NCBI GenBank assembly: GCA_963974725.1
Contig: CAXBFC010000001.1
Location: forward strand, 471 to 64,470
From: an uncultured bacterium
GTDB lineage: Bacteria > Planctomycetota > UBA1135 > UBA2386
Length of the DNA: 64,000 bases
Reading direction: 5' to 3'
Each line of letters begins with the position of its first letter. Position 1 is the first letter of the stretch. A program made the translations under genes and the position numbers. Under the pieces are notes generated by a model that was given only the letters and a program-made list of their open reading frames with translations, ran no database searches and was not told where the DNA came from. Positions 2,527 to 63,978 of the stretch are shown in pieces.

Positions 2527-3936
2527 CTAGACCTCGTCGATCACGCCGGTGCTGCCGGCGAACGAGTTCGTTTCGACGCCGAGGCGCTGCAGCATCGTCA
2601 CGAACAGGTTTGCCAGCGGCTTGTCTTCGTGGGCGAACTCCTGCTGCCAGGGCTCGCGACCGCCGGTCCACGCTCCCCCAAAGGCGGTGCCTCGGAGGTA
2701 ATTGAGGTATTGGCCGTGCTGGAAGCCCATGTTATTGCCACCGAGCAACACCAGTGGGTAGTTGCGGGAGAGATGGAAGGCACTCGATGCCGACCCGAAC
2801 AGGATCAACGTGTTGTCGAGCATGTTGCCGACGCCACCGACTTCCTTGGTCGCCTTGAGCTTCGCGGCGAAGCGCGCCATCTCTTCATTGAGGAAGCCGC
2901 AGTAGGTCGCGAAGTTCTTCCAGCCGCCGGGCTTCTTGGTTTCGTGGGACAACTGGTGTGCCAGCTGGAACCCGACCGCCCGCGCCAGGTGATCACTGAT
3001 ACCGACACCGTTCTCGCGGCCGATTTGGTAGGTCGCTACGCGGGTCGAATCCGTCTGGAACGCGAGGTGAATCAGACCAAGCATCGCCTGCAAGTAGGCG
3101 CGCGACTCATCAGGCGTCGACTCGAGCTTCAGATCATGGCCAGCCACCGTTGGCAACGGAATGCTCGCCCACCGCTTCGCCTTCTCGATCTTCTGCTCGG
3201 TCTCGCGGACCGAATCGAGGTATTCGTCGAGCGACTGCTGGTCGTGGCCGGACAGCTTCTTGCGCAACGAACGGGCATCCACCAACAAGTCATCCAGCGC
3301 ACTCTCGTTCAAGGCGAGGCGCTTGGCGGCGTCTTCATCGCGCTTCACGAACAATGCATCGAAGACTCTCTTCGGCCGGTGTGCGGCAGGCATCGCGCGG
3401 CCACGGCGATCGAATGACAGCGTGTGGGCGCCGCGCGGCGTGCCGGTGCCGCCATCCGTCGACATCACCAGGGACGAGTAGCGGGTTTGCTCGCCGACAT
3501 GTGCGGCGAACTCCTGATCGAGCGAGATCGAGTTCTTGTAGTCGCCGCGCACCCCCGTGTCCGCGCCGGTCAGGAACTGGTCGGCGTTCGAGTGGCCATG
3601 CACCTTGCGCACGGCGGGATGCGACATGCCCGACACGATCGTCAGATCCTGCCGCAACGGCCCGAACGTCTCGAGGCACTTCGTGAAGGTGTAGTCCTTG
3701 CCGGCCCCGTGCGGGAACCACGACCAATCCTGGTAGGCCGGATCCTCCGCCAACGGCATCGGCACGCCATCTGGCCAGTAGACGCACGCAAACCGCTTGT
3801 GCTTCGCGCGACGTTCCACGGCGCCAACTTCCGCGCCCGCCGCTCCCACGAAAGACTCAAGCCACGGCAGTGCGAGCGCCACCGCCGAACCACGGAGGAA
3901 GCGGCGCCGGTCTAGGGATGCGATGTCGATGGTCAT
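2527..3936 (-). CDS. DUF1501 domain protein (sulfatase-like fold, Tat signal)
   Basis: 469-aa ORF. N-terminal twin-arginine motif DRRRFLRGSAVALALP. Lies downstream of a DUF1549/DUF1553 gene, the usual planctomycete pairing. Confidence 0.9.
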   Translation of the reverse strand: MTIDIASLDRRRFLRGSAVALALPWLESFVGAAGAEVGAVERRAKHKRFACVYWPDGVPMPLAEDPAYQDWSWFPHGAGKDYTFTKCLETFGPLRQDLTIVSGMSHPAVRKVHGHSNADQFLTGADTGVRGDYKNSISLDQEFAAHVGEQTRYSSLVMSTDGGTGTPRGAHTLSFDRRGRAMPAAHRPKRVFDALFVKRDEDAAKRLALNESALDDLLVDARSLRKKLSGHDQQSLDEYLDSVRETEQKIEKAKRWASIPLPTVAGHDLKLESTPDESRAYLQAMLGLIHLAFQTDSTRVATYQIGRENGVGISDHLARAVGFQLAHQLSHETKKPGGWKNFATYCGFLNEEMARFAAKLKATKEVGGVGNMLDNTLILFGSASSAFHLSRNYPLVLLGGNNMGFQHGQYLNYLRGTAFGGAWTGGREPWQQEFAHEDKPLANLFVTMLQRLGVETNSFAGSTGVIDEV

Positions 3937-3976
3937 AGATCTGGGGGTATGGACCTGGGGTCACAGGCCTAATCGT

Positions 3977-6748
3977 CTAGTTCGACTGGAACAACTCGCT
4001 GGTCACGATCGAAGTGATCATGGTAGCAAGGCCATCGCCACGCATTCGTGTCTGAGCTGTAATCTCGTCGATCGCGGCACGATCTGCAAACGTCAACGGC
4101 CGGCCGAGTGCGAACGTCGCCAGCTTTTGGACCAAGGCCCGAACGAACTGATCCTGCCGATTCTTGAGCAGGAAGCGCTTCAAGCCATCGACGCCATCGA
4201 GCTTCTGCTTGTTGAACAGCACGCTGACCGAGTCGACCGGCTTGCCGCCAATCTTGGTGCGGAACCTGCCGACCGCATCGAAGTTTTCGAACGCGATCCC
4301 CCACGGATCGATCTTGGCGTGGCAGGACATGCACGCCGGATGATCTCGATGGTTCTCGATGCGCTGCTTCAACGTCATCTTGGCGATCTCCGGATCGGTC
4401 AGATCGATCTCAGGCACAGCCGGCGGCGGCGGTGGCGGCGGATCGTTGAGCAGACGCTCCAGCATCCAGATGCCGCGCTTCAGCGGATGCGAGTCGATGC
4501 CATCGGAGTTCATCGCCAGCAACCCCGCCTGCGTCAACAAGCCGCCACGTCCCTGCTCAGGCGTCAGCTCGACGCGGCGGAACTGGTTGCCCGTGACATC
4601 GGACAAGCCGTAGTGCTTGGCCAGCCGTTCATTGGCCATCGTGAAGTTGGCGTGCAAGAACTCGAGCGCGCTGTGATCTTGCTGCAGAACCTCGTGGAAG
4701 AATGCGATTGGCTCCTCAGCCATCGCCTGCTTCAGGGTCGCATCAAAGCGTGGGTAGGCTTTGCGATCGACGTGCAAGAAGTCGAGCAGTTCGAGCCCGA
4801 GCCACTGTCGAACGAAGTGCTGCGAGAACCTGCGCGCCTTGGGATCGCGCAGCATGCGTTCGAGCTGGTCGCGAAGCACGTCCGCATCCTGCAACTGCCC
4901 TGTGCTCGCCAGCGTCTGCAACTCGCGATCCGGCATGCTACACCAGACGAACATCGACAGGCGCGTCGCCAACTCAAGCCCGGACAGTCCGTCTGCCTTC
5001 GAGGCAACGACGTAGAGGAAGTTGGGCGACGCCAGCACCGTCGCCAACGTCTCGACCATCGCATCCTCGAAGCTGCCGCACTTGGGGCGCAGCTTCTCAA
5101 ACAGCTTCACCTTCTGCGCGACTTCTTGTTGGGTCGCATCACGGCGCCATGCACGCGAAAGAAACTGCGTCAGCACCTCACGTGCGTAGACGTTCTCCTC
5201 GGCGGGCTTCGAGCTGGCACGATCGCCGAAGATCTTCGTGTGCGAAGTCGGCGGCCACTGCTCGTAGACGGGAGCGCTGACCTCGACGTGGTCGATCCAC
5301 ACATCGCCGCCCGAATGCGACGTGTTGAGAATCTTGATGTATTCCGACGGGCTTGGAAGCTGGCCGAGCTCCTGGGTCTTGCGCACCATGTTGCGCGGAT
5401 AGATCTGGCTCAACGGCACTTGCCATTCGTAGAACTGCGCCGCCCCAGGTGCAGCAGCCACGACAAGTTCCTCCTTGCCGATCACGTACGAAGAGCTCGA
5501 GTCGTTGCTCGCCTGCCAGCCGAACATTAGCTGCAAGCTCGGTGCCCCATCATGCTCGCGTGACTCGCGCGAGGCACGCACACGCACGCGCAGCATGCCC
5601 CGCTCCGGCAACTGATTTCCTAGCTCGACGACCAGTGCCTTGCGCTGCGGAACAACCGCAATCTGTTCCAACTGAGCTGGGACTTCGGGCCGTTTTTCCG
5701 CTGGCTTCCAAGCAAACTTCGCGCCGTTGTAGCCCCACGACTGCCGCGCCATACGGCCACTCTTCAGGTCCTTGTAGAAGACGCCGTTCGGCCGCTTCAA
5801 AAAGCGCTCGGCCTGACGCGCCAACTCGACTTCCAACTTCTTCGAGTCGTCCTTGTGCTTCTTGCGCAGGTTGGCGAGTTGCTGGTCCTGCTTCGCCCAC
5901 TCGACTGCCGCCGCGGCTGGCATCGACACACCCCAATGCAGCATTTCTGGCTGCTCACCGGTGATCGTCGCCAGGCGCAACGCCCGACGACTGGCATCCA
6001 GGTAGGCGCGAAACTGCATGCCCGATACGTGCAGCACTTCTGAGCTGTTTTGGAAGCCGTCTTTCGAAGTCGGATCGGGGGGCAGGTCTTCGGCAAAGTC
6101 GAACGGCAGCCCGAGCAGGTCTTGCAGCGCGTAGTTGTATTCGTACCGCGTCATCCGCCGGAACGACGAATGCTTGATGGTGGCGCGACGCGTGGTCGAG
6201 GCGATCTGGATTTCCGCAGCCAACCATTCGATCACCCGGGTGCGATCCCCATCGGCAAGCTCCACTTCGTCTTCCGGCGGCATCTCGCCGTTGGTCAACA
6301 CCGCGAGCACTTCGAGCCACCAATCGACATCGTTGCCCGCGAACAGGTCGGCATTGAGCGTATCGATGCGCAGCTCGCCCTTCTGCTTGTCCGGCCCGTG
6401 GCATTCGAAGCACGCTTTCGCGAGCACCGGTTGGATCAACTTCTGGAAGGTCTTGAGGTCCGGCTCCGGGGCCGTTTCGGCGACCCGCTTCGATTCGTGC
6501 GTGTGGTAGCTCGAGCGACGCGCGCCCTCCACCTTGAGCTCGTCGAATGACTTGGGTTGCGCAGCCGGCTTCGGGTCCTGAAGGGTCTTGGAGTCTTCTG
6601 GCGCCTCGACCACCTGCGCGTAGGCGCCGTTACACATGACACACAGCAGTGCGGCGAAGCACACAATGTATCGGACGTTCTTGTGTCGGACGTTCTTGTG
6701 TCGGACGTTTCGGTGTCGGACGTTCTTGGTGTCGATCATTGGCGTCAT
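3977..6748 (-). CDS. DUF1549/DUF1553 protein with planctomycete cytochrome-c-like domain (PSD1-type)
   Basis: 923-aa ORF. CFECHGPDKQKGELRIDTL (CxxCH) N-terminal domain, second CMSCHAKIDPWG motif, signal peptide after a basic repeat region. Confidence 0.9.
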   Translation of the reverse strand: MTPMIDTKNVRHRNVRHKNVRHKNVRYIVCFAALLCVMCNGAYAQVVEAPEDSKTLQDPKPAAQPKSFDELKVEGARRSSYHTHESKRVAETAPEPDLKTFQKLIQPVLAKACFECHGPDKQKGELRIDTLNADLFAGNDVDWWLEVLAVLTNGEMPPEDEVELADGDRTRVIEWLAAEIQIASTTRRATIKHSSFRRMTRYEYNYALQDLLGLPFDFAEDLPPDPTSKDGFQNSSEVLHVSGMQFRAYLDASRRALRLATITGEQPEMLHWGVSMPAAAAVEWAKQDQQLANLRKKHKDDSKKLEVELARQAERFLKRPNGVFYKDLKSGRMARQSWGYNGAKFAWKPAEKRPEVPAQLEQIAVVPQRKALVVELGNQLPERGMLRVRVRASRESREHDGAPSLQLMFGWQASNDSSSSYVIGKEELVVAAAPGAAQFYEWQVPLSQIYPRNMVRKTQELGQLPSPSEYIKILNTSHSGGDVWIDHVEVSAPVYEQWPPTSHTKIFGDRASSKPAEENVYAREVLTQFLSRAWRRDATQQEVAQKVKLFEKLRPKCGSFEDAMVETLATVLASPNFLYVVASKADGLSGLELATRLSMFVWCSMPDRELQTLASTGQLQDADVLRDQLERMLRDPKARRFSQHFVRQWLGLELLDFLHVDRKAYPRFDATLKQAMAEEPIAFFHEVLQQDHSALEFLHANFTMANERLAKHYGLSDVTGNQFRRVELTPEQGRGGLLTQAGLLAMNSDGIDSHPLKRGIWMLERLLNDPPPPPPPAVPEIDLTDPEIAKMTLKQRIENHRDHPACMSCHAKIDPWGIAFENFDAVGRFRTKIGGKPVDSVSVLFNKQKLDGVDGLKRFLLKNRQDQFVRALVQKLATFALGRPLTFADRAAIDEITAQTRMRGDGLATMITSIVTSELFQSN
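6671..6730. repeat. 15-bp tandem repeat x4 (tcggacgttcttgtg) inside the 5' end of the DUF1549/1553 gene
   Basis: Four consecutive 15-mers read directly. On the minus strand they encode (K/R)NVRH x4 in the n-region of the signal peptide. Confidence 0.9.
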
Positions 6749-11750: not shown

Positions 11751-12179
11751 ATGCTCAAGAACGCCATCTATCTCGCGACAGGTGCTTTGCTGTTCGCCCA
11801 GTCTGGGTTGGCCCAGGCCCCGTTCAACCAGACTCCGCTCCACCCGGCCAGAGAACCCCGGGCCACAGACCTGCAAGCACCCGTTCGCATTCTGGCCGCA
11901 GGCAAGCCCATCGATGTGACGACTGGCCACGCGGCGCCCTACGTGCGCGACTGCGACGGTGACGGGGTCCGCGACCTGATCGTCGGCGAGTTCGGCGACG
12001 GCAAGTTCCCCGATCACGAGTTGCCTGAGTGCCTCGCCGAAGGCTGGAAGAAGGGCGGCCGGTTCGCCAATGGACGACTGCGCGTCTACAAGAACCACGG
12101 CACCAACAGCCAACCGCGCTTCGAAGACTTCGAGTATCTGGAAGCGGGTGGCGACATCGCCACAGTACCGATCACTTGA
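11751..12179 (+). CDS. FG-GAP/VCBS repeat secreted protein, N-terminal part (ends at in-frame TGA)
   Basis: Signal peptide MLKNAIYLATGALLFAQSGLAQA and CDGDGVRDLIVGEFGDG motif. Same reading frame as 12183..13055, separated only by TGA and one Cys codon. Confidence 0.7.
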   Translation: MLKNAIYLATGALLFAQSGLAQAPFNQTPLHPAREPRATDLQAPVRILAAGKPIDVTTGHAAPYVRDCDGDGVRDLIVGEFGDGKFPDHELPECLAEGWKKGGRFANGRLRVYKNHGTNSQPRFEDFEYLEAGGDIATVPIT

Positions 12180-12182
12180 TGC

Positions 12183-13055
12183 TTGAGCTTCTGTCCACAG
12201 TTCGTGGACTACGACGCCGATGGCTTGACCGACATCCTGACGGGTTCTTATACCGGCCAGTTCTACCTTTTCCGCGGCCAAGCGAACGGCAGCTACGCGC
12301 AACGGGAACTGCTCGTCAACGAAACCGGCGCGACCCTGCTGATGCCGTTCGACACGGTCTACTCCGTCACTGCAGAGTTGGTGGACATGGACGCCGACGG
12401 TGACCTCGACCTGATCGTCGGGGCTCGTTCGGGCACGGTGCAGGTCGTCACCAACATCGGTACCAGAAAGGCGCCGATCTGGTCGAAGGATCGCAGCCCA
12501 CTCAAGACGACTGCCGGAATCGAAATCAAGGGCAGCAACGCCCACCACGCCGACTGGGACGGGGATGGCCTTCGTGATCTGATCGTCGGCAGCGAGCACG
12601 GCGAAGTACGCTGGTATCGCAACACCGGCAAGAACGATGCGCCGCGCTACGCAGCAGCCAGCGTCCTGGTGCGCCAAGCCGGGCACAGTCGTCAGGAAGA
12701 AGGCTCGACGCCAACCGCACACGGCCAACGCGTCAAGGTGCACGTCACCGACTGGAACGGCGACGGCTTGGTCGACCTACTCGTGGGCGACGTCACCTGG
12801 CAGCAATCGACGCCCAATCCGCTCAACAAGGCGGAAGCAGCCAAGAAGCAGAAGCTCGACAGGGAGCTATCGAGTGTTCGCAGCAAACTGGCGAGCACGG
12901 CCAAGGGAGCCGCGCGCGACCAGTTGCAAGAACAGGTCGACTCCATTCGCAAGAAGCTCCGCCCATACAATCGCACCAAGTCCCACACCCACGGTTGGGT
13001 TTGGCTCTACTTGCGAACCGGCAAGGCGAGTGAAGCGAGCGTCGATCGCCGCTAG
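12183..13055 (+). CDS. FG-GAP/VCBS repeat protein, C-terminal continuation of 11751..12179
   Basis: DYDADGLTDIL, DMDADGDLDLIVG, DWDGDGLRDLIVG, DWNGDGLVDLLVG repeats. No signal peptide, only a TTG start directly after the upstream stop, no intergenic space. Confidence 0.7.
   Translation: MSFCPQFVDYDADGLTDILTGSYTGQFYLFRGQANGSYAQRELLVNETGATLLMPFDTVYSVTAELVDMDADGDLDLIVGARSGTVQVVTNIGTRKAPIWSKDRSPLKTTAGIEIKGSNAHHADWDGDGLRDLIVGSEHGEVRWYRNTGKNDAPRYAAASVLVRQAGHSRQEEGSTPTAHGQRVKVHVTDWNGDGLVDLLVGDVTWQQSTPNPLNKAEAAKKQKLDRELSSVRSKLASTAKGAARDQLQEQVDSIRKKLRPYNRTKSHTHGWVWLYLRTGKASEASVDRR
12193..12209 (+). other. 17-nt stem-loop GTCCAC-AGTTC-GTGGAC 13 nt downstream of the in-frame TGA (bSECIS-like candidate)
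   Basis: Perfect 6-bp inverted repeat with a 5-nt loop containing GU. The apical loop starts 19 nt after the UGA. Confidence 0.3.
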
Positions 13056-18135: not shown

Positions 18136-19992
18136 TCAGTTCATCACGATCGTGATCGGGTTCGAGAACGTGAAGCCGATCGCGAGGTTGGCCGGGTTGG
18201 TGGTCAAACCCTGCAGAGTAATCTGCAAGCCCGGCGGCAAGAACGCCGGCACGGGCACGGCCAAGGTGGCATCACCGTTTGCGTCCAATACGTAGGCCGG
18301 GTTGAGAAGCCCGTTCGCGAGGATGAGCAGATTGGGTGCAAGACCCAACGTGCCCGCCGGCCCCGGAGCACCAGGATTCAGGCCAATGCCGAACGGCAGC
18401 AAGTAGGCCTCACCCGGGTGGCCATGCACTTCGACAGTCATTGACGAACCGAGCGCAACCGATAGCGGTGGCGCACCAAAGCCTGGCGAGCCACCGGTGC
18501 CATTGATCTCAAACGCCGCGCCACGCGATTCCTTCTGCACCGGCAGCGGCGGGCTATCGAAGAAGAACAGCAGGTCAGCAAGTTCATCGATGCCGATCAC
18601 TTCCATGTCTTCGTCACCGTCAATGTCCGCCAAGATCGCGCACGAGCCCGCGCCCGTTGCCGGCAATATCTGCGGCGTGCCATAGGTGCCGTTGCCCTGG
18701 TTGCGGAACACGTAGAACGAACCGCCGGTGTAGCTCGACGAAATCAGGTCGAGGTCGCCGTCGCCATCCAAGTCGCCAAGGTCAATCGCCAGCGAGAACG
18801 GCCCGCAGGGATAGGTCACGGCCGGCAAGAAACCGCCGGCACCGTTGTTCCTCATCACCGCCACGCTGCTTGCGTTCGACAGGCTCGCAACAACATCGAC
18901 GTCACCATCCAGGTCGACGTCACCGGTCGCCATCATCCACGGGCGGCCGCCAGCGGCAACTGTCGCTGAAACGGTGAAGTTGCCGGCACCATCACCGAGC
19001 AGCATCGCGACGTCCTCGCTGCCGTAGCCGCCGACGAACAGGTCCATGATGCCATCGCCGTTGATGTCCGCTGCGGCGATCGAGGTTTCGTTGGAGACAC
19101 CACCTTGAAAGCTCACCGACGGTTGGAACGTGCCATCGCCGTTGTTGCGAATGAGCGACAGCGTGCCACTGACGCGATTGGCCGTCATGATGTCGGTGTC
19201 GCCATCGCCATCGACGTCGAGCACCGTCAAGCCGCGCGGGCCCGTGCCAACCGGTAGGATCACCACCGGCAGCAAGTCGCCAGTGCCATCGTTGAGGAAC
19301 ACACCAACCGAGTTGCCGGTGATGTTGGCGACCGCGAAGTCCGTCCACCCATCATCGTTGAAGTCCGCACCTTCGTTCGAACTCGGCTTCGTCCCAAACG
19401 GCAGCGAGTGCACCGTGAAGGTCGAGAAGTTGCCGGCGCCATCGTTCATGAAGCGGCGGACATCGTGGGCGTCCTCATTCGGGATCAGCAGATCGCAGTA
19501 GCCATCGTTATCCAGGTCGCCGGCGTAAGCGCCATAGGAGCGAATCAACCCCTCGCCGGGAAAACGAATCGGCACGGTCACTTGATGCACAAGACTCGGC
19601 ACCGCGGGCGGTGACGCAATCCAGAACCCAGTCGCATGATTGGCGGCCAACGCCACCCCACCCGAACTCATCAACGCCGGCGTCAGCGTCGCCGTGATCT
19701 GTTCGCCGGCGGAGAACGGCGCGCTGGGAGTAAAGCGAATCACCGTGTTGCCGCTCTCAAGCGTGCGCGTGCCATTCATGACCCCGCTCCAACGCCCCCA
19801 CACCATGACAGAGTTCGCCGTCACCGTCCCGGGGTCGACCGGCGCACCAAACGTCCAGGTGATATCGCCCACCGCCGACGCATCCGTCGCCTCAGCCGTC
19901 GGAACAACCTGCACAACCTGGAACTGCGCCGAAACAGAAGCACAAGCAATGACGCCAACCACAAACAGCACTCGAGGAAGATGGATTCGCAT
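18136..19992 (-). CDS. secreted Ig-like (SbsA-type) + FG-GAP/VCBS repeat protein with shared C-terminal module
   Basis: ORF 18136..20169. ATG at 19992 gives the signal peptide MRIHLPRVLFVVGVIACASVSAQ. Many DxDGDG repeats (DLDNDGYCDL, DFNDDGWTDF, DVDGDGDTDI, DINGDGIMDL, DVDLDGDVDV, DLDGDGDLDL). C-terminus AVPVPAFLPPGLQITLQGL. Confidence 0.85.
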   Translation of the reverse strand: MRIHLPRVLFVVGVIACASVSAQFQVVQVVPTAEATDASAVGDITWTFGAPVDPGTVTANSVMVWGRWSGVMNGTRTLESGNTVIRFTPSAPFSAGEQITATLTPALMSSGGVALAANHATGFWIASPPAVPSLVHQVTVPIRFPGEGLIRSYGAYAGDLDNDGYCDLLIPNEDAHDVRRFMNDGAGNFSTFTVHSLPFGTKPSSNEGADFNDDGWTDFAVANITGNSVGVFLNDGTGDLLPVVILPVGTGPRGLTVLDVDGDGDTDIMTANRVSGTLSLIRNNGDGTFQPSVSFQGGVSNETSIAAADINGDGIMDLFVGGYGSEDVAMLLGDGAGNFTVSATVAAGGRPWMMATGDVDLDGDVDVVASLSNASSVAVMRNNGAGGFLPAVTYPCGPFSLAIDLGDLDGDGDLDLISSSYTGGSFYVFRNQGNGTYGTPQILPATGAGSCAILADIDGDEDMEVIGIDELADLLFFFDSPPLPVQKESRGAAFEINGTGGSPGFGAPPLSVALGSSMTVEVHGHPGEAYLLPFGIGLNPGAPGPAGTLGLAPNLLILANGLLNPAYVLDANGDATLAVPVPAFLPPGLQITLQGLTTNPANLAIGFTFSNPITIVMN

Positions 19993-20013
19993 CCCCTGAT
20001 CGTACGGTGCCTC

Positions 20014-20040
20014 GTACGCACCCAGGCACAGAAGTAACAC
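20014..20040 (+). repeat. REP-like element copy a (GTACGCACCCAGGCACAGAAGTAACAC)
   Basis: Aligns with four other copies in the window. Lies between the FG-GAP gene start (19992) and the RAYT start (20093). Confidence 0.7.
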
Positions 20041-20092
20041 TTTCCCGGCCCGTTGTTCGCCTGCTCGTTCCACCACTTGCAGAAGAACGCAA

Positions 20093-21100
20093 ATGGCAAG
20101 GAAACCGCGCAACGACTCGCCAGGAACCTGGCACCACGCAATGAACCGCGCGATCGCTCGCCGGCCCATCTTCGAAACGCGAGAGGATGTGCGCTACTTC
20201 CTCGCTGGCGTCGCCCGTTCGGTTCGCAGAGGCCAACTCGAAGTGCACGCATGGTGCGTGATGACGACGCATTTCCACATGCTCGTGCGAAGTCCGATCG
20301 GCGAGTTGTCAGAGGCGATGCACCGCATCCAGAATGCGTTCACGCGCTACTTCAACCGGAAACGGCGTCGTGATGGACCACTGTTTCGCGGTCGCTTCTT
20401 GTCCAACCCTGTGGAATCGATCGCCTACCGGCGGATTCTGGTGAACTACATCGACGCGAATCCGGTTCGTGCCGGCCTGTGCACCGATCCATGCAGGTAT
20501 CCGTGGGGCAGCGCGCGGCAGTATGTCGAAAGCACGGGACCACGTTGGCTGCACCGGCAATGGGTCGAAGAGCTGGTCTCCGAGCGATCGCCTACGGGGC
20601 GCTTCGATCCGAGTTCTTATCCGCGATCCACGGATGAGCGGCAGCGTGATGTGTTCGCGCACCTGGTGCAAGCGCGACTCGAATCGTCCAGCACAACCGA
20701 CGAGCTCGATTCGCTATTGGCCATGGCGCCCCCGGCCATTCGCGCTTGGTTGCGGCGCAAGGCGGTTCTCGCTGATGGCGCGCCACCACCATTCCCATGC
20801 GTCGCGGCCACCGTCATCACCGACTCGATCGCCGAATCCGCCATCCAGCACGGCACCTGGATCGTTCGCCCAAACCGCGCACAAGTCGACGGCTGGTCCA
20901 CCCTGCACGCAGGTCTCCTACGCGGTCTCGCAAACGAGAGCATGGTCGGCGTTGCACATCGCGTCAAAGTGTCGGCAGTGCAAGCCAAGAGGCTTGTCAC
21001 TCGCCACCGAGAGCTCCTGCTCACGTCCGACCTCTACAGCAACCGCGCCGCTGAAATCACCCACACAATCCTGAACGTACTGTGCCAGGCACAGATCTAA
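20093..21100 (+). CDS. REP-associated tyrosine transposase (RAYT, IS200-like Y1 transposase domain) with C-terminal extension
   Basis: 335-aa ORF. HUH motif in WCVMTTHFHMLV and catalytic-Tyr motif ILVNYIDANPVRAGL. Flanked by REP palindromes. Confidence 0.85.
   Translation: MARKPRNDSPGTWHHAMNRAIARRPIFETREDVRYFLAGVARSVRRGQLEVHAWCVMTTHFHMLVRSPIGELSEAMHRIQNAFTRYFNRKRRRDGPLFRGRFLSNPVESIAYRRILVNYIDANPVRAGLCTDPCRYPWGSARQYVESTGPRWLHRQWVEELVSERSPTGRFDPSSYPRSTDERQRDVFAHLVQARLESSSTTDELDSLLAMAPPAIRAWLRRKAVLADGAPPPFPCVAATVITDSIAESAIQHGTWIVRPNRAQVDGWSTLHAGLLRGLANESMVGVAHRVKVSAVQAKRLVTRHRELLLTSDLYSNRAAEITHTILNVLCQAQI
21077..21100 (+). repeat. REP-like element copy b (GTACTGTGCCAGGCACAGATCTAA), overlaps the RAYT stop codon
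   Basis: Contains the palindrome CTGTGCC-A-GGCACAG. Encodes the last residues LCQAQI and the stop of the RAYT. Confidence 0.75.
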
Positions 21101-22586: not shown

Positions 22587-23471
22587 TTAGCGGGGACGGC
22601 CGGAGCGAGTCGAAAGCCATGCGGACAGCAAGACAATGGCTGTGCCGATGATCGCGAGCACCGTCACCGATTCGCCGCGCACCGCAATGCCAAGCACCGT
22701 GGCCACCACCGGGATGACATAGGTCGTCATCGACGCACGAACGGATCCAACGCGGCCCGTGAGCTTCGTGGCCATCATCAAGGCCAGCCCGGTGCCGCCC
22801 GCGCCGAGCGCGATGCAGGCGAACATCGGCCCCCACGCGAAGCTCGACTCGGGCAAGCCAACGACTGCGTATGGCGCGACCAACACAGCAGCAAGTGCGA
22901 CCGCGCGAGACAGCACTGGCATCGAGCCATACTTGCGCTGTAGCGGCCCGGCGAGATTGATGGCGAAGCCATAGGAGAAGATCGCCGCCAGGACCAGAGC
23001 GACCCCAATCGCATGCGTGCTTGAGGTCGTCGCGCCCGGGATGCCAATCAACAGAACGCCGACCACGCCGACCGCCACCCCCACCATGCGCCGAGTGCTC
23101 GTCGGGGTTGCGAAGAACAACCAAGAGATCGCAACGGTGCCGAGCGGCATCGCCGCATTGAGCATTCCGGCCAACGACGAATCAATCCACTGCTGGGCAA
23201 TCGGGAACATTGTCAACGGAAACGCAATCCACGTCACGGCAAGCCACGCGATCTTCGGCAGATCTCGCCGCTCGACCGGGCGCCAGGCCCTTGGCAAGAG
23301 GCCGAGGAACAACGCGCCCGTGAATACGCGCAAGAACGTGACGACACCCGGCGAAAACGCTTCGAGGCCGATCGCGATAAACAAGAACGACGCGCCCCAG
23401 ATGCAAGCCGCGCCAAGCAGCAACGCCCAATCGAGCAAGCGGAACGGCGTATCCGCGTGGGAGACGCTCAC
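22587..23471 (-). CDS. EamA/DMT-family transporter
   Basis: 294-aa polytopic hydrophobic ORF (WGASFLFIAIGL...). GTG start overlaps the upstream stop (GTGA). Confidence 0.8.
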   Translation of the reverse strand: MSVSHADTPFRLLDWALLLGAACIWGASFLFIAIGLEAFSPGVVTFLRVFTGALFLGLLPRAWRPVERRDLPKIAWLAVTWIAFPLTMFPIAQQWIDSSLAGMLNAAMPLGTVAISWLFFATPTSTRRMVGVAVGVVGVLLIGIPGATTSSTHAIGVALVLAAIFSYGFAINLAGPLQRKYGSMPVLSRAVALAAVLVAPYAVVGLPESSFAWGPMFACIALGAGGTGLALMMATKLTGRVGSVRASMTTYVIPVVATVLGIAVRGESVTVLAIIGTAIVLLSAWLSTRSGRPR

Positions 23472-24967
23472 TGACGCTTCTTCTGCAATGTATAGTAGAC
23501 CTTGTCGCCAAGCAGTTGCTTCGCCGTGCGCGACGCCATGCCAGCTAGTGAGAAGGTGTAGACATTGCCTTCGCGCAACTCACCCAACTGCACGGTCAGC
23601 GTCGTGCCGGCGTCGTCCAAGTTCGCGGACGCTACGGGCACATCACGGTCATCGACCTTCGGCGAGCCATAGGCCTTGAAGTACTTGTAGCCATGCGCGC
23701 GCACCTTCAAGCCCTTGAGGGTCTGCATGTCAACTGGCTGAGTAAACCGCAACGTGAAGCCGCGCGAAGTCACGCGCACCTGATCGACCGCGAACAGCTC
23801 TGCTGGCTTCGCCCGCAACCGCACACGCACCAGGCCCTCAGCACCGGCCCACGACAAGTGCGTCTTGCCGATCCACAGCGAACCATCCGCAGTGAACGTC
23901 ATGCGATGATTGCCGGCGCCAAGCAACTGGGTCTGCAAGAACGGGATGGCCGCGCCTTGGGACACGTCGCCGACCGGATCCGGAAGGAACCGCACCAACG
24001 TCTTCTGATTCATCTCCCCCAGCAACGTCTGCCCTGCAAAGACACCAAACACGCCTTCGGGCACCGCGATCGGCTGTGTTGGCGAACTGGCAAGCTCTCC
24101 TTGCGGCAACCAGGCGGCGGCCGGCGTACGCAACGCATCCAGTTCCGCGACCGGCATCTGCAAGGGGTTGCGCGTCCAGCCTTCGCGCCAGATCAGCGAC
24201 GCAACGTGGCCGTAGAAGCCTCCTTCGCGCACGTGGTGCACCTTGCTTGTGCCAAGCCAATCACCCTGATTATCCGTCACCAAGAGTCGACCATCCGCAT
24301 CGAAACCGATGCCATCCGGTGAACGAAAACCGCACGCGAACGGAGTCACCTGCTCGCCATCCGGCGACAGTTTGATGACCCAGCCGCGCCACTTGGCGCG
24401 CGCATACATGCGACCGGCTGCGCCACGCACCTTGCCCCACTCCTTGGCAACGTCCATCTTGTCGCGGGGCACGCCAATGTCGCTCCACTCACCACGGATC
24501 TCCTCGCGGATGCCAGCACCGTTCGACGCGGTGTTGAGTGCCACGTAGAGATTGCCGTCGCGATCGCGCGCCGGGCCGAACGCGAACTCGTGGTAGTTGC
24601 CGGTCATGCCAAAGCCGTCATAGACGGTGTCGTAGGCATCAGCGCGGCCATCGCCATCGGTATCGCGCAAGCGCGTCAACTCGCAACGCTGCATGACCAA
24701 CAGGCTCGAATCGCTTTCGGCCAGCATGCCCAGCGGCTCGTGCAAGCCTTCGGCGAACGGCGTCCACACGCCAGTCGCCGGATCGTAGAGCAACACCTCG
24801 CCGCGATGAAAACACACCGCCAACTTGCCGCTCGGCAGAGCGGCGATGCCGCCAATCTGCGGATCGATACCGGCCGGGATCTCGATCGTTTCGATCGAGA
24901 ACGCATCCGTCCACACGTCACCGCGAAACGCACCCAACATGGCGAAGAACACTGCAAAGACATGCAT
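23468..24967 (-). CDS. beta-propeller dehydrogenase-like protein (putative membrane-bound/PQQ-type dehydrogenase domain of PVC bacteria)
   Basis: 499-aa ORF. Its start overlaps the stop of the upstream cytochrome c gene (TGATG). Family assignment from general resemblance only. Confidence 0.55.
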   Translation of the reverse strand: MHVFAVFFAMLGAFRGDVWTDAFSIETIEIPAGIDPQIGGIAALPSGKLAVCFHRGEVLLYDPATGVWTPFAEGLHEPLGMLAESDSSLLVMQRCELTRLRDTDGDGRADAYDTVYDGFGMTGNYHEFAFGPARDRDGNLYVALNTASNGAGIREEIRGEWSDIGVPRDKMDVAKEWGKVRGAAGRMYARAKWRGWVIKLSPDGEQVTPFACGFRSPDGIGFDADGRLLVTDNQGDWLGTSKVHHVREGGFYGHVASLIWREGWTRNPLQMPVAELDALRTPAAAWLPQGELASSPTQPIAVPEGVFGVFAGQTLLGEMNQKTLVRFLPDPVGDVSQGAAIPFLQTQLLGAGNHRMTFTADGSLWIGKTHLSWAGAEGLVRVRLRAKPAELFAVDQVRVTSRGFTLRFTQPVDMQTLKGLKVRAHGYKYFKAYGSPKVDDRDVPVASANLDDAGTTLTVQLGELREGNVYTFSLAGMASRTAKQLLGDKVYYTLQKKRQ

Positions 24968-25905: not shown

Positions 25906-27306
25906 TCAGAGCGAGCGAATGCGCAGGTTCCGCAGTTGCAGCGGCATCGAGTGATCTTGGAACCCAATCGAGCCCGTGCGCGGGCGATCGGCGATGCGCT
26001 TGTGATCGAGCGCCATCGTGTGCACCAGGCGACCATTCAACGTCACCAGAATCGTGCCGTTCTCGCAAAGCACGTGCATGTGGTTCCACTCACCCGCCGG
26101 CTTCGCCGCGTTCTCACTCGGCGGCCCACCCGGAATGATGCCGCCGGCATCGTGGTCGGTCAGACGCACCTTGTCCGCGGCCGTCGCGTAGAGCTGCACT
26201 TCGACGCCCGTGGCGACTGGCTTCGCCTGATCGCCGACGTGGAAGTAGAAACCTGAGTTGCCGTTCTTCTCGAGGCTGTACTCAAACTCCGCCTCGAAAT
26301 CCGCGTAGTCGCCTTCGACCCATAGGTAGTGGCCGTAGCGCTGCCAACCCTTCTGACCATCGCTCGGCGTCAGCTTGGCGACGCCATCGGCGAGCGTCCA
26401 ATTGCCTTTGGTCGCGCAATGCGTCGACAGTTCTTTGCCGGCCAGCGGCTTCGCCCAGGCACCCGGCTCCTCCAGTTTCAGGATCTCGACCGAACGGAAC
26501 TGGATCGCGTGGCTCTCGGATTGCAGCGAGATCGTGCCCTTGCGCAGTTGCTTGCTACGACCATCGGCGAGCAACTTCTTGGCGTCCGCATCGCGCGGAT
26601 CCAATTGCGGCTGCTCATAGGCGAGCACCGTGTGGCCGTCGATCAGGTGACGAATCGTATCGCCGCGCACTTCGATCTCGGCAGTGACCCAACCGTCGCC
26701 CCGGTAGGTCTTGGAGTTGGAGTTCAAGCAATGCGGCGTCCACAGCTTGCCGTTGCGAACGACATTCGTGCCGGGCGTGCACAGGTTCGAAGTCGGCCGC
26801 TCGCCCTTCTCGCGACCGCCCAGGATCTGCACTTCGATCGACACTGGGAAGTTCTGTTTCTTGGTCATCGATTCCGCGGACTGGCCATGAATCATCACGC
26901 CACTGTTGCGGAACGCCCAGCCAGGGCCACCCTTCACCTGAGGGCCGACAAAGCGGTATTCGGTGCGGAATCGGTAGCTGGCAAACTCGTCCTTGTAGAA
27001 CAGGTGACCAAAGCGGCCGTTGAACGCATCGTAGTTTTCGTAGGAGACGGTCAGCAGTCCGTCGACGACGCGGAACGTATCACCAAAGTTGTCACCGAGA
27101 TCGTGGCCGACGATCTTCGGCGTCCAACCGGTCAGGTCCTTGCCGTTGAACAACGGCCGCCACGTTGCCGGCGAGGCATCGGGAGCAGCGGGCGCAGCGG
27201 CGTCTTGCGCAGCGGTAACGCCGGCAAAACTGGTGACCGCCAGCATCGCAGCGGCAACCAGCTGCGGAAAGAACACAACACGAGGACGAGGGTGCGAACC
27301 GTTCAT
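25906..27306 (-). CDS. tandem DUF1080 (3-keto-disaccharide hydrolase-like) domain protein
   Basis: 466-aa ORF with signal peptide. Two copies of the WxxLFNGKDLxGW ... FQDH/LQSE pattern (WRPLFNGKDLTGWTPK; GSIGFQDHSMPLQLRNLRI). Confidence 0.85.
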   Translation of the reverse strand: MNGSHPRPRVVFFPQLVAAAMLAVTSFAGVTAAQDAAAPAAPDASPATWRPLFNGKDLTGWTPKIVGHDLGDNFGDTFRVVDGLLTVSYENYDAFNGRFGHLFYKDEFASYRFRTEYRFVGPQVKGGPGWAFRNSGVMIHGQSAESMTKKQNFPVSIEVQILGGREKGERPTSNLCTPGTNVVRNGKLWTPHCLNSNSKTYRGDGWVTAEIEVRGDTIRHLIDGHTVLAYEQPQLDPRDADAKKLLADGRSKQLRKGTISLQSESHAIQFRSVEILKLEEPGAWAKPLAGKELSTHCATKGNWTLADGVAKLTPSDGQKGWQRYGHYLWVEGDYADFEAEFEYSLEKNGNSGFYFHVGDQAKPVATGVEVQLYATAADKVRLTDHDAGGIIPGGPPSENAAKPAGEWNHMHVLCENGTILVTLNGRLVHTMALDHKRIADRPRTGSIGFQDHSMPLQLRNLRIRSL

Positions 27307-33549: not shown

Positions 33550-33623
33550 GGTGGGAGTAGCTCAGTGGTAGAGCGGAAGTCTGTGGAACTTCAGGCCCAG
33601 GTTCGATTCCTCGCCCCACCCCA
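33550..33623 (+). tRNA. tRNA-His (anticodon GTG)
   Basis: Hand fold: G-1 plus GTGGGAG acceptor, D arm GCTC-AGTGGTA-GAGC, anticodon arm GAAGT-CTGTGGA-ACTTC, T arm CCAGG-TTCGATT-CCTCG, encoded CCA. The acceptor stem needs one bulged A and the T stem has a C-C mismatch. Confidence 0.75.
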
Positions 33624-33701
33624 ATTCGCCACATCCCGATTCGCCACACCCATGCGAACCATCAACCCGAGAGGAGGTGATCCACCACTACATGCACATT
33701 A

Positions 33702-33775
33702 ACTGGCGTCGTTCAACAGCAGGACACCCGGCTCTGAACCGGACAATGCAGGTGCGAATCCTGCCGCCAGTACCA
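33702..33775 (+). tRNA. tRNA-Gln (anticodon CTG), non-canonical T loop TGCGAAT
   Basis: Hand fold: acceptor ACTGGCG/CGCCAGT, D arm GTTC-AACAGCA-GGAC, anticodon arm CCCGG-CTCTGAA-CCGGA, variable CAAT, T arm GCAGG-TGCGAAT-CCTGC, discriminator A, CCA. Confidence 0.8.
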
Positions 33776-33776
33776 C

Positions 33777-33851
33777 GTCCCCGTAGCTCAGTAGCAGAGC
33801 ACCTGGCTGTTAACCAGGGTGTCGTAGGTGCGAGTCCTACCGGGGACGCCA
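33777..33851 (+). tRNA. tRNA-Asn (anticodon GTT), non-canonical T loop TGCGAGT
   Basis: Hand fold: acceptor GTCCCCG/CGGGGAC, D arm GCTC-AGTAGCA-GAGC, anticodon arm CCTGG-CTGTTAA-CCAGG, T arm GTAGG-TGCGAGT-CCTAC, discriminator G, CCA. Starts 1 nt after the CCA of tRNA-Gln. Confidence 0.85.
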
Positions 33852-33887
33852 TATCTCGACGCGCAAGCCTCGTCGGGACTGCCATTC

Positions 33888-33964
33888 ATCGATGTAGCTC
33901 AGCAGACGAGAGCGCTTCCGTGCGAAGGAAGAGGTCGCAGGTGCGAATCCTGCCATCGATACCA
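33888..33964 (+). tRNA. tRNA-Arg (anticodon GCG), non-canonical T loop TGCGAAT
   Basis: Hand fold: acceptor ATCGATG/CATCGAT, D arm GCTC-AGCAGACGA-GAGC, anticodon arm CTTCC-GTGCGAA-GGAAG, T arm GCAGG-TGCGAAT-CCTGC, discriminator A, CCA. Confidence 0.8.
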
Positions 33965-57686: not shown

Positions 57687-58808
57687 ATGACGCGCCATGC
57701 ATCCGCAATCTTGCTCGCCTCGATGGTTGCTGCCGGCCTGCAGGCCTCCCTGCCGGCGCAGGCAATCACGTGGTGGGACAAGGATTTCGACCAAGCTCTC
57801 ACCGCTGCCAACGACAAGCCGGCCAAGATGGTGCTGCTCTACTGTTGGCAAGACAAGCACGACACCTGCGCCGCGATGTTCGACGGCACCATGGGCGACA
57901 AGAAAGTCAGCGCGAAGCTGGCTGACTTCCTGTGCATGGGCGTGCAGAACAACGAAGCCGGGCGGGCCGTTTGGCAGCGCTACAAGGTCGCTTCGGTTCC
58001 GACGGTGTACTTCATTGCTCCGGATGGCGCCATCGTCGACGTGCTGCCTGGCTACGTGCCGATCGAGCAGTTCCTCGCCGACATCGATCGCATTCGAGCC
58101 GGCACGGACACGATCCAAGCGCTGCGCGAACACCAGAAGCAGAAGCCTGAAGACATCAAGCAGGCGCTGAAGCTGGTGCAGAAGCTGCGACTGGCGAGCG
58201 ACATCAAGGGTTCGCACGCGGTCATCGACGCGATGATCAAGGTCGACCCGAAGGGCAAGTCGGAGGAAGTCGCCGAAGCAATGCTGTGGAAGATCAGCGA
58301 TGAGACGTTCCGCGACGATGTGCCCCCGGCGGAATACGACCTCAAGGAGCTGCGCCTGTTCTTGAAGTCGCAACGCAACAAGCGCGTGCTGTTCCTCGGC
58401 TATGACCAGATGGCATCGGCGCACTACCGGCGCGAGGAGCTGAAGGATGCGGCGGCGGCGGCGATGAAGGCATGGAAGAACATCCCCGAGGATCAAGTCA
58501 TCGACTGGGGCCAGCGCATGTGTGGCATCGCCTACCGGCGCTGGAAGGATCTCGACAAGGCCAACAAGCGCACGCTGAAAGACGTTCTCTCCATCAGCAA
58601 GAAGACGTTGGCCGCAGTCGAAGCGCGCCACAAGAAGCAGCCAGACGCGACGTTCCTGGGCAATGCGATGTATCTGCACGCCGCCGTGCTGATCGTAAAC
58701 AAACAACGCAAGAAGGCGCTAACGCTCATGGACGAAGCGATCAAGATCGACCCAAACAACAAGAACCTGGAGCCCGCCAAACAGAACTGGCTCAAAGGCA
58801 ACAAGTAG
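57687..58808 (+). CDS. secreted thioredoxin-fold domain protein with helical (TPR-like) C-terminal region
   Basis: 373-aa ORF with signal peptide. KMVLLYCWQDKHDTCAAM ... VASVPTVYFIAPDG resembles thioredoxin-like/DUF255-type domains. Confidence 0.7.
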   Translation: MTRHASAILLASMVAAGLQASLPAQAITWWDKDFDQALTAANDKPAKMVLLYCWQDKHDTCAAMFDGTMGDKKVSAKLADFLCMGVQNNEAGRAVWQRYKVASVPTVYFIAPDGAIVDVLPGYVPIEQFLADIDRIRAGTDTIQALREHQKQKPEDIKQALKLVQKLRLASDIKGSHAVIDAMIKVDPKGKSEEVAEAMLWKISDETFRDDVPPAEYDLKELRLFLKSQRNKRVLFLGYDQMASAHYRREELKDAAAAAMKAWKNIPEDQVIDWGQRMCGIAYRRWKDLDKANKRTLKDVLSISKKTLAAVEARHKKQPDATFLGNAMYLHAAVLIVNKQRKKALTLMDEAIKIDPNNKNLEPAKQNWLKGNK

Positions 58809-61855: not shown

Positions 61856-63241
61856 TCACGCCTGCGATTTCGGCCGAACCATCGACAGCAGGCGCACGGT
61901 CGCGAGGACCAGGCCAACCCCAAGCAGCGAACCGACGACCGGCAGAAGCCAACGGCTGCCACTGACCCAGTGCGGGGTCGCCTCGCCTTCGAAGCGACTT
62001 GTGCCGTGCACATAGCCAGCCACGCTCAGCCAAACCACCATGACAAACAACGAGCCGCTGATCAGCCAGATGCTCTTCTTGGTGATCGGGGCGTCCATGC
62101 GCGGCAACACGGCACTGCCGCGCAGTTCGATCACCAGCCAGGATGCCGTGCCGAGCAACACCAACGTGTCAATGCCGACCGTCGCGCCCATCGCGTGGCC
62201 CATGACCAGCTGCGTGCCGTGGATCAGCGTGTTGAAGGGCGGCCACGAAATGATCAGCGACGTGAACAACATGAAGATCGTCCACCACTTGGCCATGCCC
62301 AGCCAGCTGCCGCGGCCGCAGAACGCCTGCGCACCTTTGCGGTTCTTCAGCATCTTGCCCATGTCGAGCATCAGCTTGACCAGGATGATGACTTCGGCCA
62401 TCGACACCAAGAACGCCACCCACTTGACCGTCTCGGTCTGCGGCAGGTGATAGGTGTGGTGCACGTAGTTGGTGAAGCTGTTGAGACAGCCAACGCCGAA
62501 CAGCCAGAACGCGACTGGCGACTGGCCATACTTCTTGTCACCGGACAAGCGTTCGCCAACGTAGGTCAGCGAGCCATACATCATGAAGTTGTATGACCCG
62601 ACCAGCGTGCCACACGACTTCCACTGCACCTGAAGGTCCTTGATCGGACGGTTGAAGATGTCGTCGAGCAGGTAGGCGTGGCCTTCGACGAACGTGTAGA
62701 TGAAGAACAGCGAGCCACACGTCCAGAACCAGATATAGATCGGCTGGTTCCAGAAGCCGTGACGCAGTCGTCGCAGCAGATTCCACGCGAAGGCCATCCA
62801 GCCGACCAGCAAGAACGCGCTGAACACTCGGTGGAAACCCAGGTATTCGCGGCCGCTGCTGATGCCCATGAACAGCGAGACAAAGATGCCCGCGCCCGCG
62901 ATCAACCAGCAAACCGTATGCACGCGGAAGCGCATCAAGTCGGCACGCGTCAGGCCACCGTGACTGCTGCACAGGAAGTGGTAGACGATCGCAACGCTGC
63001 CGCCAACGATCCACAGCGACGCGAACGCGGTGTGGATCGGGCGCAACTTCAGGAACGTCAAGCCCCAATCATTGAGCGTCGACGAGAGGCCCGGAATGAC
63101 CTCGACCGGCACGTAGTGCAAAGCACCGAGTGCGCCACCTGCGACGGCGACGAGAATGCAAACCAATGCCATTCGGACCTGCACGTAGCAGGTCTTTTCA
63201 AGCATCTCTGCCGGCGGTCGTGGCAATTGCGTGTCGCTCAT
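61856..63241 (-). CDS. heme-copper oxidase superfamily subunit I-like protein (cbb3/NOR-related)
   Basis: ORF 61856..63256. ATG at 63241 overlaps the upstream stop (ATGA). 12-TM-like. LRPIHTAFASLWIVGG, FVEGHAY and NYVHHTYH resemble CcoN/NorB heme and CuB/FeB ligand motifs. Confidence 0.75.
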   Translation of the reverse strand: MSDTQLPRPPAEMLEKTCYVQVRMALVCILVAVAGGALGALHYVPVEVIPGLSSTLNDWGLTFLKLRPIHTAFASLWIVGGSVAIVYHFLCSSHGGLTRADLMRFRVHTVCWLIAGAGIFVSLFMGISSGREYLGFHRVFSAFLLVGWMAFAWNLLRRLRHGFWNQPIYIWFWTCGSLFFIYTFVEGHAYLLDDIFNRPIKDLQVQWKSCGTLVGSYNFMMYGSLTYVGERLSGDKKYGQSPVAFWLFGVGCLNSFTNYVHHTYHLPQTETVKWVAFLVSMAEVIILVKLMLDMGKMLKNRKGAQAFCGRGSWLGMAKWWTIFMLFTSLIISWPPFNTLIHGTQLVMGHAMGATVGIDTLVLLGTASWLVIELRGSAVLPRMDAPITKKSIWLISGSLFVMVVWLSVAGYVHGTSRFEGEATPHWVSGSRWLLPVVGSLLGVGLVLATVRLLSMVRPKSQA

Positions 63242-63978
63242 TTGTACTCCCACCAAGGCAACGATTGTTCGGCACCGACGCCGCCGACTTGCTTGGCAAG
63301 TTCGGCGCGGTCCTCATTGAGCCACTTCAAGAACGCGACCAGGTCGTCGATCGTCTCCGACGGCAAGTCCTTCCATGACTGCATGCCGCGCTCCGGTCGA
63401 CCTTCGACGATCGTCGTGCGTACCGCAGCCTCATCGATGCGCCCAAACACCGTCGTCAAGTCCGGCGCCGTCTGCAAACCGAGCGGCGTCGACTGCAACG
63501 GCAAGTGGCACGACGTGCAACTCTGCTTGAAGGCAGCCAAGCCGCGCATCACCGCGTCACCGGGCGTAGCGGCCTGTGCACGTGCGTTGACCGCAGCCAT
63601 CACGGCCGACGGGTCGAGCGGCTTGTGACGGCGTGGCACGCCAATCCCCATGTAGCTCAGCTCATCCAGGAAGAAGGCCACATCATTGCGCTGCTTCTCC
63701 GAAAAGTGGAACGCCGGCATTTGCTTCACGCCGACTGTCAGGACCTCCTCAAGGCGCTTGTCCAGATTGTCGCCGAGGCGCGCTGCAGCGTTGGTCAGGT
63801 CCGGACCAAGGAAGCCCCCGAAGCCATGGATCTGGTGGCAGCTCTGGCAATTGTATTCATGCCAAAGACGACGACCACGCACCGCTTCCTCGCTCAGTGT
63901 TTCGAACGTGGAGGCGGTGTCATCGAGATAGACGAGGGCTGTCTGCACCGCAAAGGCGGCGACCAGGCCACTCATCAA
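63238..63978 (-). CDS. membrane-anchored diheme c-type cytochrome
   Basis: CQSCHQIHGFGG and CTSCHLP heme-c motifs. The frame stays open upstream to the window edge, so the true start may lie beyond 64000. Confidence 0.75.
   Translation of the reverse strand: MMSGLVAAFAVQTALVYLDDTASTFETLSEEAVRGRRLWHEYNCQSCHQIHGFGGFLGPDLTNAAARLGDNLDKRLEEVLTVGVKQMPAFHFSEKQRNDVAFFLDELSYMGIGVPRRHKPLDPSAVMAAVNARAQAATPGDAVMRGLAAFKQSCTSCHLPLQSTPLGLQTAPDLTTVFGRIDEAAVRTTIVEGRPERGMQSWKDLPSETIDDLVAFLKWLNEDRAELAKQVGGVGAEQSLPWWEYK

Follow-up and report, generated by a model that had tools for sequence, protein, structure and literature searches.

In canonical bacterial selenoprotein genes, of which Escherichia coli fdhF is the paradigm, an in-frame UGA is followed within the coding region by a stem-loop that presents G-U in a small loop, at a spacing of 16-37 nucleotides (nt); these genes have cysteine (Cys) homologs, and their selenocysteine (Sec, U in motifs) apparently derives from a redox-active Cys. 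A vicinal Cys-Sec centre is known from mammalian thioredoxin reductase, where it lies in a C-terminal G-C-U-G motif. In Planctomycetes, Kim et al. 2016 (PMC4807772, Table S9) listed, in the supplement only, 'ASPIC/UnbV; FG-GAP repeat' Sec candidates from two organisms, for which bSECISearch was positive in 3/4 cases. The gene studied here lies in a 64,000-nt stretch of DNA from an uncultured member of the Planctomycetota (UBA1135; UBA2386), namely positions 471 to 64,470 of the forward strand of contig CAXBFC010000001.1 (assembly GCA_963974725.1); this whole stretch is called the window, and the positions given are those of the window. The gene resembles the canonical genes in all of the features named for them. 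It differs from them in that its hairpin is minimal, with a 5-bp (base pair) invariant core and one variable pair, and in that the protein is a predicted exported FG-GAP beta-propeller, not a thioredoxin-fold or molybdopterin enzyme. Comparison with related sequences indicates that two annotated open reading frames (ORFs) very probably form a single gene, whose product is an exported selenoprotein with an FG-GAP beta-propeller and in which a UGA is read as Sec. Such recoding had been proposed in an initial annotation of the locus, and it is supported by the pairing of the UGA with Cys in homologs, by the conservation of the UGA, and by a hairpin specific to the UGA-containing forms.

Reading of the sequence gives a single frame on the + strand from the ATG at 11751 to the TAG at 13053-13055, and its sole break is the TGA at 12177-12179, after which come TGC (Cys) and TTG. 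The two same-frame ORFs, 11751..12179 and 12183..13055, that the initial annotation described as parted by this TGA were thus found as stated. The read-through product of 11751-13055 has 434 residues (...EAGGDIATVPIT*CLSFCPQFVDYDADG...), and across residue 143, with U read in, the peptide is …ATVPIT-U-CLSFCPQFVDYDADGLTDILTGSYTGQFYLFR. As had also been observed, a signal peptide is missing from the downstream piece. One is predicted in the upstream piece; full-length homologs have hydrophobic N-termini comparable to that of the window protein, and the protein is probably exported by means of this predicted signal peptide. In Pfam searches, the read-through protein matched FG-GAP_3 (2.2e-20, 73.4 bits, cutoff 26.9) and FG-GAP (3.1e-9, 37 bits, cutoff 22.1), and it has at least five DxDxDG-type loops. 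No Pfam match to UnbV_ASPIC was found in the window protein, and the AhpC/TSA (peroxiredoxin) domain is likewise absent from it according to Pfam; it also lacks DsbD_N. The protein P0001 (283 amino acids, aa) is 100% identical to the product of 12204..13055, with the N-terminus MDYDADG, and assemblies made independently of one another (ENA, Logan, Tara, and NCBI) all have the gene split into 142-aa and 283-aa proteins.

When databases were searched for relatives of the read-through protein, 1459 matches were obtained, of which the best 120 fell into two kinds. Most of these 120 were of ~270-290 aa and covered the C-terminal 60-65% of the query only, at 45-76% identity, and every match of this length that was inspected started at the same V/M-DYD. 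The other kind, of 418-605 aa, covered 87-99% of the query. In the alignment of full-length homologs (A1, 38-49% identity), the UGA column held Cys, followed by a second Cys, in 10/10 sequences, in the context …[VI]P[ITS]T-C-C-[ILV]SF[CVS]P…. Metagenome contigs were then scanned with a pattern made from the peptide context only, the critical codon being left as TGH (TGA/TGC/TGT). This gave 53 loci, all with the conserved upstream peptide (…F.YL.AG…[VI]P.T); the codon was TGA in 46/53 and TGC/TGT in 7/53. Four more loci (L140-L143), reached via proteins, have the TGA-TGC context and the hairpin described below. Thus, the position of the UGA was occupied by Cys in the ten aligned homologs as well as in the seven TGC/TGT loci, and sister sequences, including independent assemblies of the same organism, keep the UGA. 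A profile search of contigs with A1 made use of generic FG-GAP motifs (DxDGDGDLD), and therefore yielded only distant relatives (L001-L080, 23-49% identity, mostly 25-31%).

The sequence around the UGA evolves as coding sequence. By the Nei-Gojobori method, comparison of the window with 16 UGA-bearing loci gave a dN/dS of 0.17-0.43 on either side of the UGA, and dS ranged from 0.8 up to saturation; since dN/dS is well below 1 despite saturated synonymous sites, both flanks are under purifying selection. Among 38 distinct UGA sequences, codon +1 was Cys in 38/38, and codon +5 was Cys in 33/38 and V/S/Y in the rest. The U-C-x-x-x-C motif of the initial annotation therefore stands as regards U and the first Cys, which is invariant, but not as regards the third Cys, which is not universal; to judge from the alignment, Cys148 is a frequent, dispensable third thiol. 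Codons +1 to +8 encode C-[ILV]-[SC]-F-C-P-Q-F with synonymous variation (for example, Ser is TCC, AGC, TCG, TCA, or AGT), and in most members no start codon occurs between the UGA and the GTG that follows these codons. As the peptide is conserved while its codons vary synonymously, the stretch from the UGA to the GTG is translated in this frame.

A structural view was obtained from the AlphaFold2 (AF2) model of the Cys homolog P0024 (pLDDT, the predicted local distance difference test score, 89.4). The model combines a propeller that matches those of integrin-alpha and BBS with a long hairpin of helices, a closing strand (HGFVWLYLR), and an nDsbD-like domain, and its Cys140-141 lie in a loop between propeller strands 136-138 and 147-149. 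The earlier claim that the stop falls inside a continuous propeller agrees with this placement of the Cys pair between strands.

The hairpin GTCCAC-AGTTC-GTGGAC at 12193-12209 was found exactly where it had been reported, 13 nt past the UGA and with its loop at 19 nt. It has a 6-bp stem, a 5-nt loop (AGUUC), and a minimum free energy (MFE) of -9.2 kcal/mol. Published criteria for bacterial Sec insertion sequence (SECIS) elements, or bSECIS, ask for a loop of 3-9 nt, a stem of 4-16 bp, and a G in the first two loop positions, with a spacing of 16-37 nt and an MFE <= -7.5 kcal/mol (PMC13188914). On all four published criteria the hairpin lies within these ranges, with 5 nt in the loop, 6 bp in the stem, G as the second loop nucleotide and U as the third, 19 nt of spacing, and the MFE given above. 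Its codon statistics were taken from the same 38 distinct UGA sequences. In the stem, Pro+6 is CCA in 37/38, and the lone CCG still pairs as G·U; Val+9 is GTG in 38/38; and codon +5 ends in T in 38/38, including the cases in which it specifies V, S, or Y rather than C. Gln+7, the source of the loop G, is CAG in 38/38, and the wobble position of Phe+8, in the loop, is C in 19 and T in 19. At the wobble positions of the stem, entropy amounts to 0-0.18 bits, compared with 1.25-1.94 bits at four-fold sites outside the hairpin (Gly-10, Ala-6, Pro-3, Thr-1, Gly+15, Gly+22, and Gly+26).

The Cys forms are different at the same codons. Five distinct Cys loci have CCG/CCA/CCC and GTC/ATC at the hairpin codons; in P0008, a Cys form placed within the Sec clade, the sequence there is tca-ccg-tat (-1.6 kcal/mol); the fold of P0024 is weak (-4.3 kcal/mol); and P0050, a Cys form of the sister clade, keeps the stem with the loop ACUUU, which has no G. 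The loop-G codon is invariably CAG in the UGA forms, as against CAC/CAT in sister Cys forms. Stem and loop G thus occur apart in Cys forms and together only with the UGA; the hairpin is conserved in UGA orthologs beyond coding need and decays in the Cys forms. This makes the family an unusually clean natural SECIS experiment: a hairpin of 5-6 bp is frozen in a clade that is otherwise synonymously saturated, a nested Cys revertant has no hairpin, and a sister Cys clade has the stem without the loop G. The Cys forms L139 (P0050) and L138 (P0024), sister to the Sec clade, encode C-P-H-F-V-D at codons +5 to +10, and after their Cys-Cys there is a partial or full stem whose loop has no G. Through the hairpin that the peptide imposes, the site may have been pre-adapted for the evolution of a SECIS element.

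In a neighbour-joining tree of 70 distinct sequences, all 28 Sec forms fell in one deep clade, with P0008 as the single nested Cys form, and the Cys forms were basal. Fitch parsimony required 2 changes with a Cys root. We infer that the Sec form arose once, from a redox-active Cys form, and that P0008 is a revertant. A Cys root with one reversion is the usual pattern of the origin of Sec from redox-active Cys.

The mechanism proposed for the recoding is that usual in bacteria. When a ribosome reaches the UGA at 12177-12179, the hairpin 13 nt downstream would act as a bacterial SECIS element, and its loop AGUUC would present G-U and recruit SelB·GTP·Sec-tRNA(Sec), the presumed SelB contact being G12200-U12201. 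Sec would then be inserted as residue 143, and translation would go on to the TAG at 13053. SelB and tRNA-Sec are accordingly the expected participants.

One possible explanation of a lone TGA that breaks an otherwise intact gene, from which annotation pipelines call two proteins, is a fresh pseudogene or an assembly or base-call error, with the protein truncated at residue 142; in this one sequence, the appearance would be the same. However, the same TGA recurs in ENA, Tara, Logan, and NCBI data assembled independently, in the 46/53 divergent metagenome loci, and in L140-L143, and the persistence of the UGA across a synonymously saturated clade, whose dN/dS values lie far under 1 in both flanks, refutes this explanation, including the fresh pseudogene that the initial annotation had kept as its alternative. 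We consider it hardly conceivable. A reassignment of UGA to a sense codon throughout the genome has nothing in its favour beyond this gene, and its probability is practically negligible. TGA ends 18/43 predicted ORFs of the window, with the piece 11751-12179 among the 18; examples are 23468-24967(-) and 63238-63978(-), the two genes from which the initial annotation had rightly judged a global reassignment to be unlikely. When the 14 other TGA-ending genes of the window were checked, 0/14 continued in frame as unbroken coding sequence, and a coding-like continuation was seen only where a separate gene follows, at 25906-27306, whose in-frame neighbour after the TGA has its own start and signal peptide. 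Thus TGA is an ordinary stop in the window, and reassignment is excluded there.

An alternative possibility is that there are two genes, with termination at the UGA and re-initiation at the GTG at 12204, so that the frozen nucleotides would mark a start site and not a SECIS element. Gene callers do place the downstream start at this GTG, which 38/38 UGA forms share. However, codons +1 to +8 are kept as protein with synonymous change and match the C-[ILV]-S-F-C-P-Q-F of the Cys forms, which means that the stretch is translated, and a start codon is missing there in most members. Furthermore, the stop falls in a loop within a contiguous propeller in the P0024 model, the predicted signal peptide is on the upstream piece only, and full-length single-chain Cys homologs exist; re-initiation is therefore very unlikely. 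Programmed read-through of the UGA to a standard residue (Trp, Cys, or Arg, by a near-cognate tRNA), stimulated by the hairpin without SelB or Sec, would have the same anatomy of a conserved UGA and a downstream structure, and Sec machinery was not found in the 64 kb of this genome that were examined. Against this, the UGA column is strictly Cys in homologs, the hairpin has the G-U loop specific to bSECIS elements at a 19-nt spacing, the loop G comes from an invariant CAG in UGA forms whereas sister Cys forms have CAC/CAT, and in some relatives (see below) a second UGA with its own G-U-loop hairpin stands at a peroxidatic Cys, an established selenoprotein site. We regard standard read-through as improbable.

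Several observations weigh against decoding of the UGA as Sec and against the role proposed for it. The genes selA, selB, and selD were not found in the 64-kb window (30 proteins scanned) or in the fetched locus flanks, and tRNA-Sec was not found by ARAGORN or Rfam in the window or in 32 locus flanks, these stretches being too short to inform. The fold of 12170-12240 is unremarkable in this single sequence (z = -0.36), and the significance of the hairpin therefore comes only from comparative data. The hairpin is short: the RNAalifold consensus is only the 5-bp core UCCAC/GUGGA, with the extended lower stem unsupported, and as it is also nearly invariant, it shows no compensatory covariation of the classical kind apart from one A-to-G change (G·U). 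The stem potential is partly dictated by the conserved peptide C-P-Q/H-F-V-D, and one Cys form also folds a stem. Finally, a redox role of the U-C pair is suggested only by the motif, the domain fusions, and the Cys inventory. Indirect support for the use of Sec comes from several Planctomycetes that are reported to possess the complete machinery (PMC4807772), and from the second UGA of some relatives (see below). Rfam searches around the site at permissive E-values gave chance-level matches only, none of them to a SECIS family.

If the UGA is decoded as Sec, the likely function of the protein is suggested by its longer relatives. In L120, L130, and L135, the propeller is followed by DsbD_N and then by an AhpC/TSA domain with a second in-frame UGA, which lies 520 codons past the first (the L130 match is at 7041 on the + strand; those of L120 and L135 are on the - strand). 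The second UGA sits at the peroxidatic Cys (FYPKASTPG-U-TAQG, motif PxxxTxxU), is spanned by the Pfam match to AhpC-TSA (4.7e-33), and is followed by the hairpin GGGGUUC-CGUGAUC-GAACCCC, which has G-U in the loop. The long-form members are, by this evidence, predicted double selenoproteins. With respect to the known peroxiredoxin (AhpC/TSA) selenoproteins with PxxxTxxU, the likeness, including the downstream hairpin, holds for these three loci; the window gene has no peroxiredoxin domain, and its Sec would be in the propeller, in a T-U-C context.

DsbD_N (PF11412) is found at the C-terminus of many family members. In the P0024 model, Foldseek matched the nDsbD-like domain to N. meningitidis nDsbD and to ScsB-N; the likeness to these periplasmic relay domains thus holds for family members with a C-terminal DsbD_N, and the window protein lacks the domain. 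P0024 has DsbD_N and no peroxiredoxin domain, and its only cysteines are those of the CC-x3-C motif and the DsbD_N pair. From the DsbD_N and Sec-peroxiredoxin fusions together with this Cys inventory, the most likely function appears to be extracytoplasmic thiol/selenol redox chemistry, i.e., peroxide or disulfide reduction; a metal-binding role for U-C is possible. The vicinal pair Sec143-Cys144 may be a redox centre that forms a selenenylsulfide, and Cys148 could resolve it. As in mammalian thioredoxin reductase, Sec and Cys are adjacent, and an eight-membered selenenylsulfide ring is conceivable; the proteins are non-homologous, however, the order here is U-C, and the pair is in an internal propeller loop rather than in a flexible C-terminal tail. 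Gene neighbourhoods differ between genomes, with no conserved redox partner and no adjacent sel gene, and no membrane DsbD/CcdA partner was found next to the gene.

We tentatively suggest, as a possibility rather than a probability, that the FG-GAP propeller carries a new extracytoplasmic catalytic centre, a vicinal Sec-Cys selenenylsulfide in a blade-connecting loop outside the thioredoxin fold, which in the long forms would be wired to an nDsbD-like relay and a Sec-peroxiredoxin. If true, this would be an unrecognised selenium-dependent system of redox or peroxide defence in the periplasm or at the surface of marine Planctomycetota. The DsbD_N and Sec-peroxiredoxin fusions suggest that abundant marine Planctomycetota carry out selenium-dependent redox reactions outside the cytoplasm, which would be of relevance to oceanic selenium use.

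The candidates of Kim et al. 2016 are from the same phylum, contain FG-GAP repeats, and consist of two adjacent annotated genes split by a UGA, as does the gene described here. However, they have the UnbV_ASPIC domain, and the closest match has Gly at the Sec column. Since the window protein has no UnbV_ASPIC and is aligned with an invariant Cys-Cys, the candidates belong to a different family; they are not among the families of the 2026 catalogue (PMC13188914). That inventory of 119 prokaryotic selenoprotein families (PMC13188914, Table 1) has no FG-GAP, VCBS, or propeller entry, the NCBIfam selenoprotein models gave no match apart from a sub-threshold FusH, and literature searches found no paper describing this family. 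It is probably not one of the GOS 'hypothetical protein' selenoprotein families, though less surely so for GOS_A. Thus, the FG-GAP selenoprotein family of marine Planctomycetota appears to be uncatalogued and new. A gene for FG-GAP and UnbV_ASPIC, of the type of the Kim et al. candidates, was seen on the contig with the ortholog of P0116 (L142/L143; 1-1195 (-) and 10907-15161 (+)), which also has an operon for a quinohemoprotein amine dehydrogenase that includes a radical SAM maturase.

Annotation pipelines, including that of NCBI, split the genes of this family into an orphan of 125-142 aa and a protein of ~280 aa, and the NCBI name for the C-terminal fragments is 'VCBS repeat-containing protein'. 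This mis-split affects dozens of protein clusters among the matches, in NCBI, ENA, JGI, Logan, and Tara data. Recognition of the family corrects the annotation and would add an exported beta-propeller without the thioredoxin fold to the prokaryotic selenoproteome. The features of the gene in the window are given in Table 1.

Table 1. Features of the predicted selenoprotein gene, in positions of the window.
Feature	Position	Strand	Remarks
Predicted selenoprotein gene, complete: signal peptide, FG-GAP/VCBS beta-propeller, helical hairpin, closing strand (…HGWVWLYLR)	11751..13055	+	434 codons + stop
Predicted Sec-type signal peptide MLKNAIYLATGALLFAQSGLAQA, AQA cleavage motif	11751..11819	+	Predicted from reading of the sequence
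In-frame UGA, proposed selenocysteine (residue 143)	12177..12179	+	Aligned Cys in homologs; TGA conserved
Codons C144-L-S-F-C148; motif T-U-C-x-x-x-C	12180..12194	+	Cys144 vicinal, invariant
SECIS-type hairpin, stem GUCCAC/GUGGAC, loop AGUUC	12193..12209	+	Synonymous sites frozen in 38 UGA forms
283-aa 'VCBS repeat-containing protein' of gene callers; start GTG = Val152, inside the hairpin	12204..13055	+	P0001

In one subclade (L093, L095, L104, L108, L114, L121, L123, L129, and L133), a gene for tRNA-Arg(UCU) lies upstream of the selenoprotein ORF; in L121, it spans 3581-3657, ahead of an ORF start near 3666. A search for other TGA-split genes in the window gave 124 matches, which were nearly all spurious long frames typical of a genome of 63% GC, and a targeted check of the TGA-ending genes of the window gave no second TGA-split candidate. 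An unrelated FG-GAP_3 protein of 677 aa, with six repeats and Big_5, is encoded at 18136-20169 (-); its gene ends with an ordinary TGA and has no coding continuation. Apart from the gene described here, a single redox-type gene was noticed in the window; it lies at 57687-58805 (+) and encodes 373 aa with a weak match to Thioredoxin_2 (5.3e-6, just over the gathering score). The content of the window is typical of Planctomycetota, with PSCyt/PSD genes, a sulfatase, and BNR/sortilin proteins; at 2527-6748 (-), there is a planctomycete-specific pair, DUF1552 (HXXSHH) and a 923-aa PSCyt1/PSD2-5/PSCyt3 protein. Four tRNA genes (His-GTG, Gln-CTG, Asn-GTT, and Arg-GCG) are located at 33550-33964 (+).

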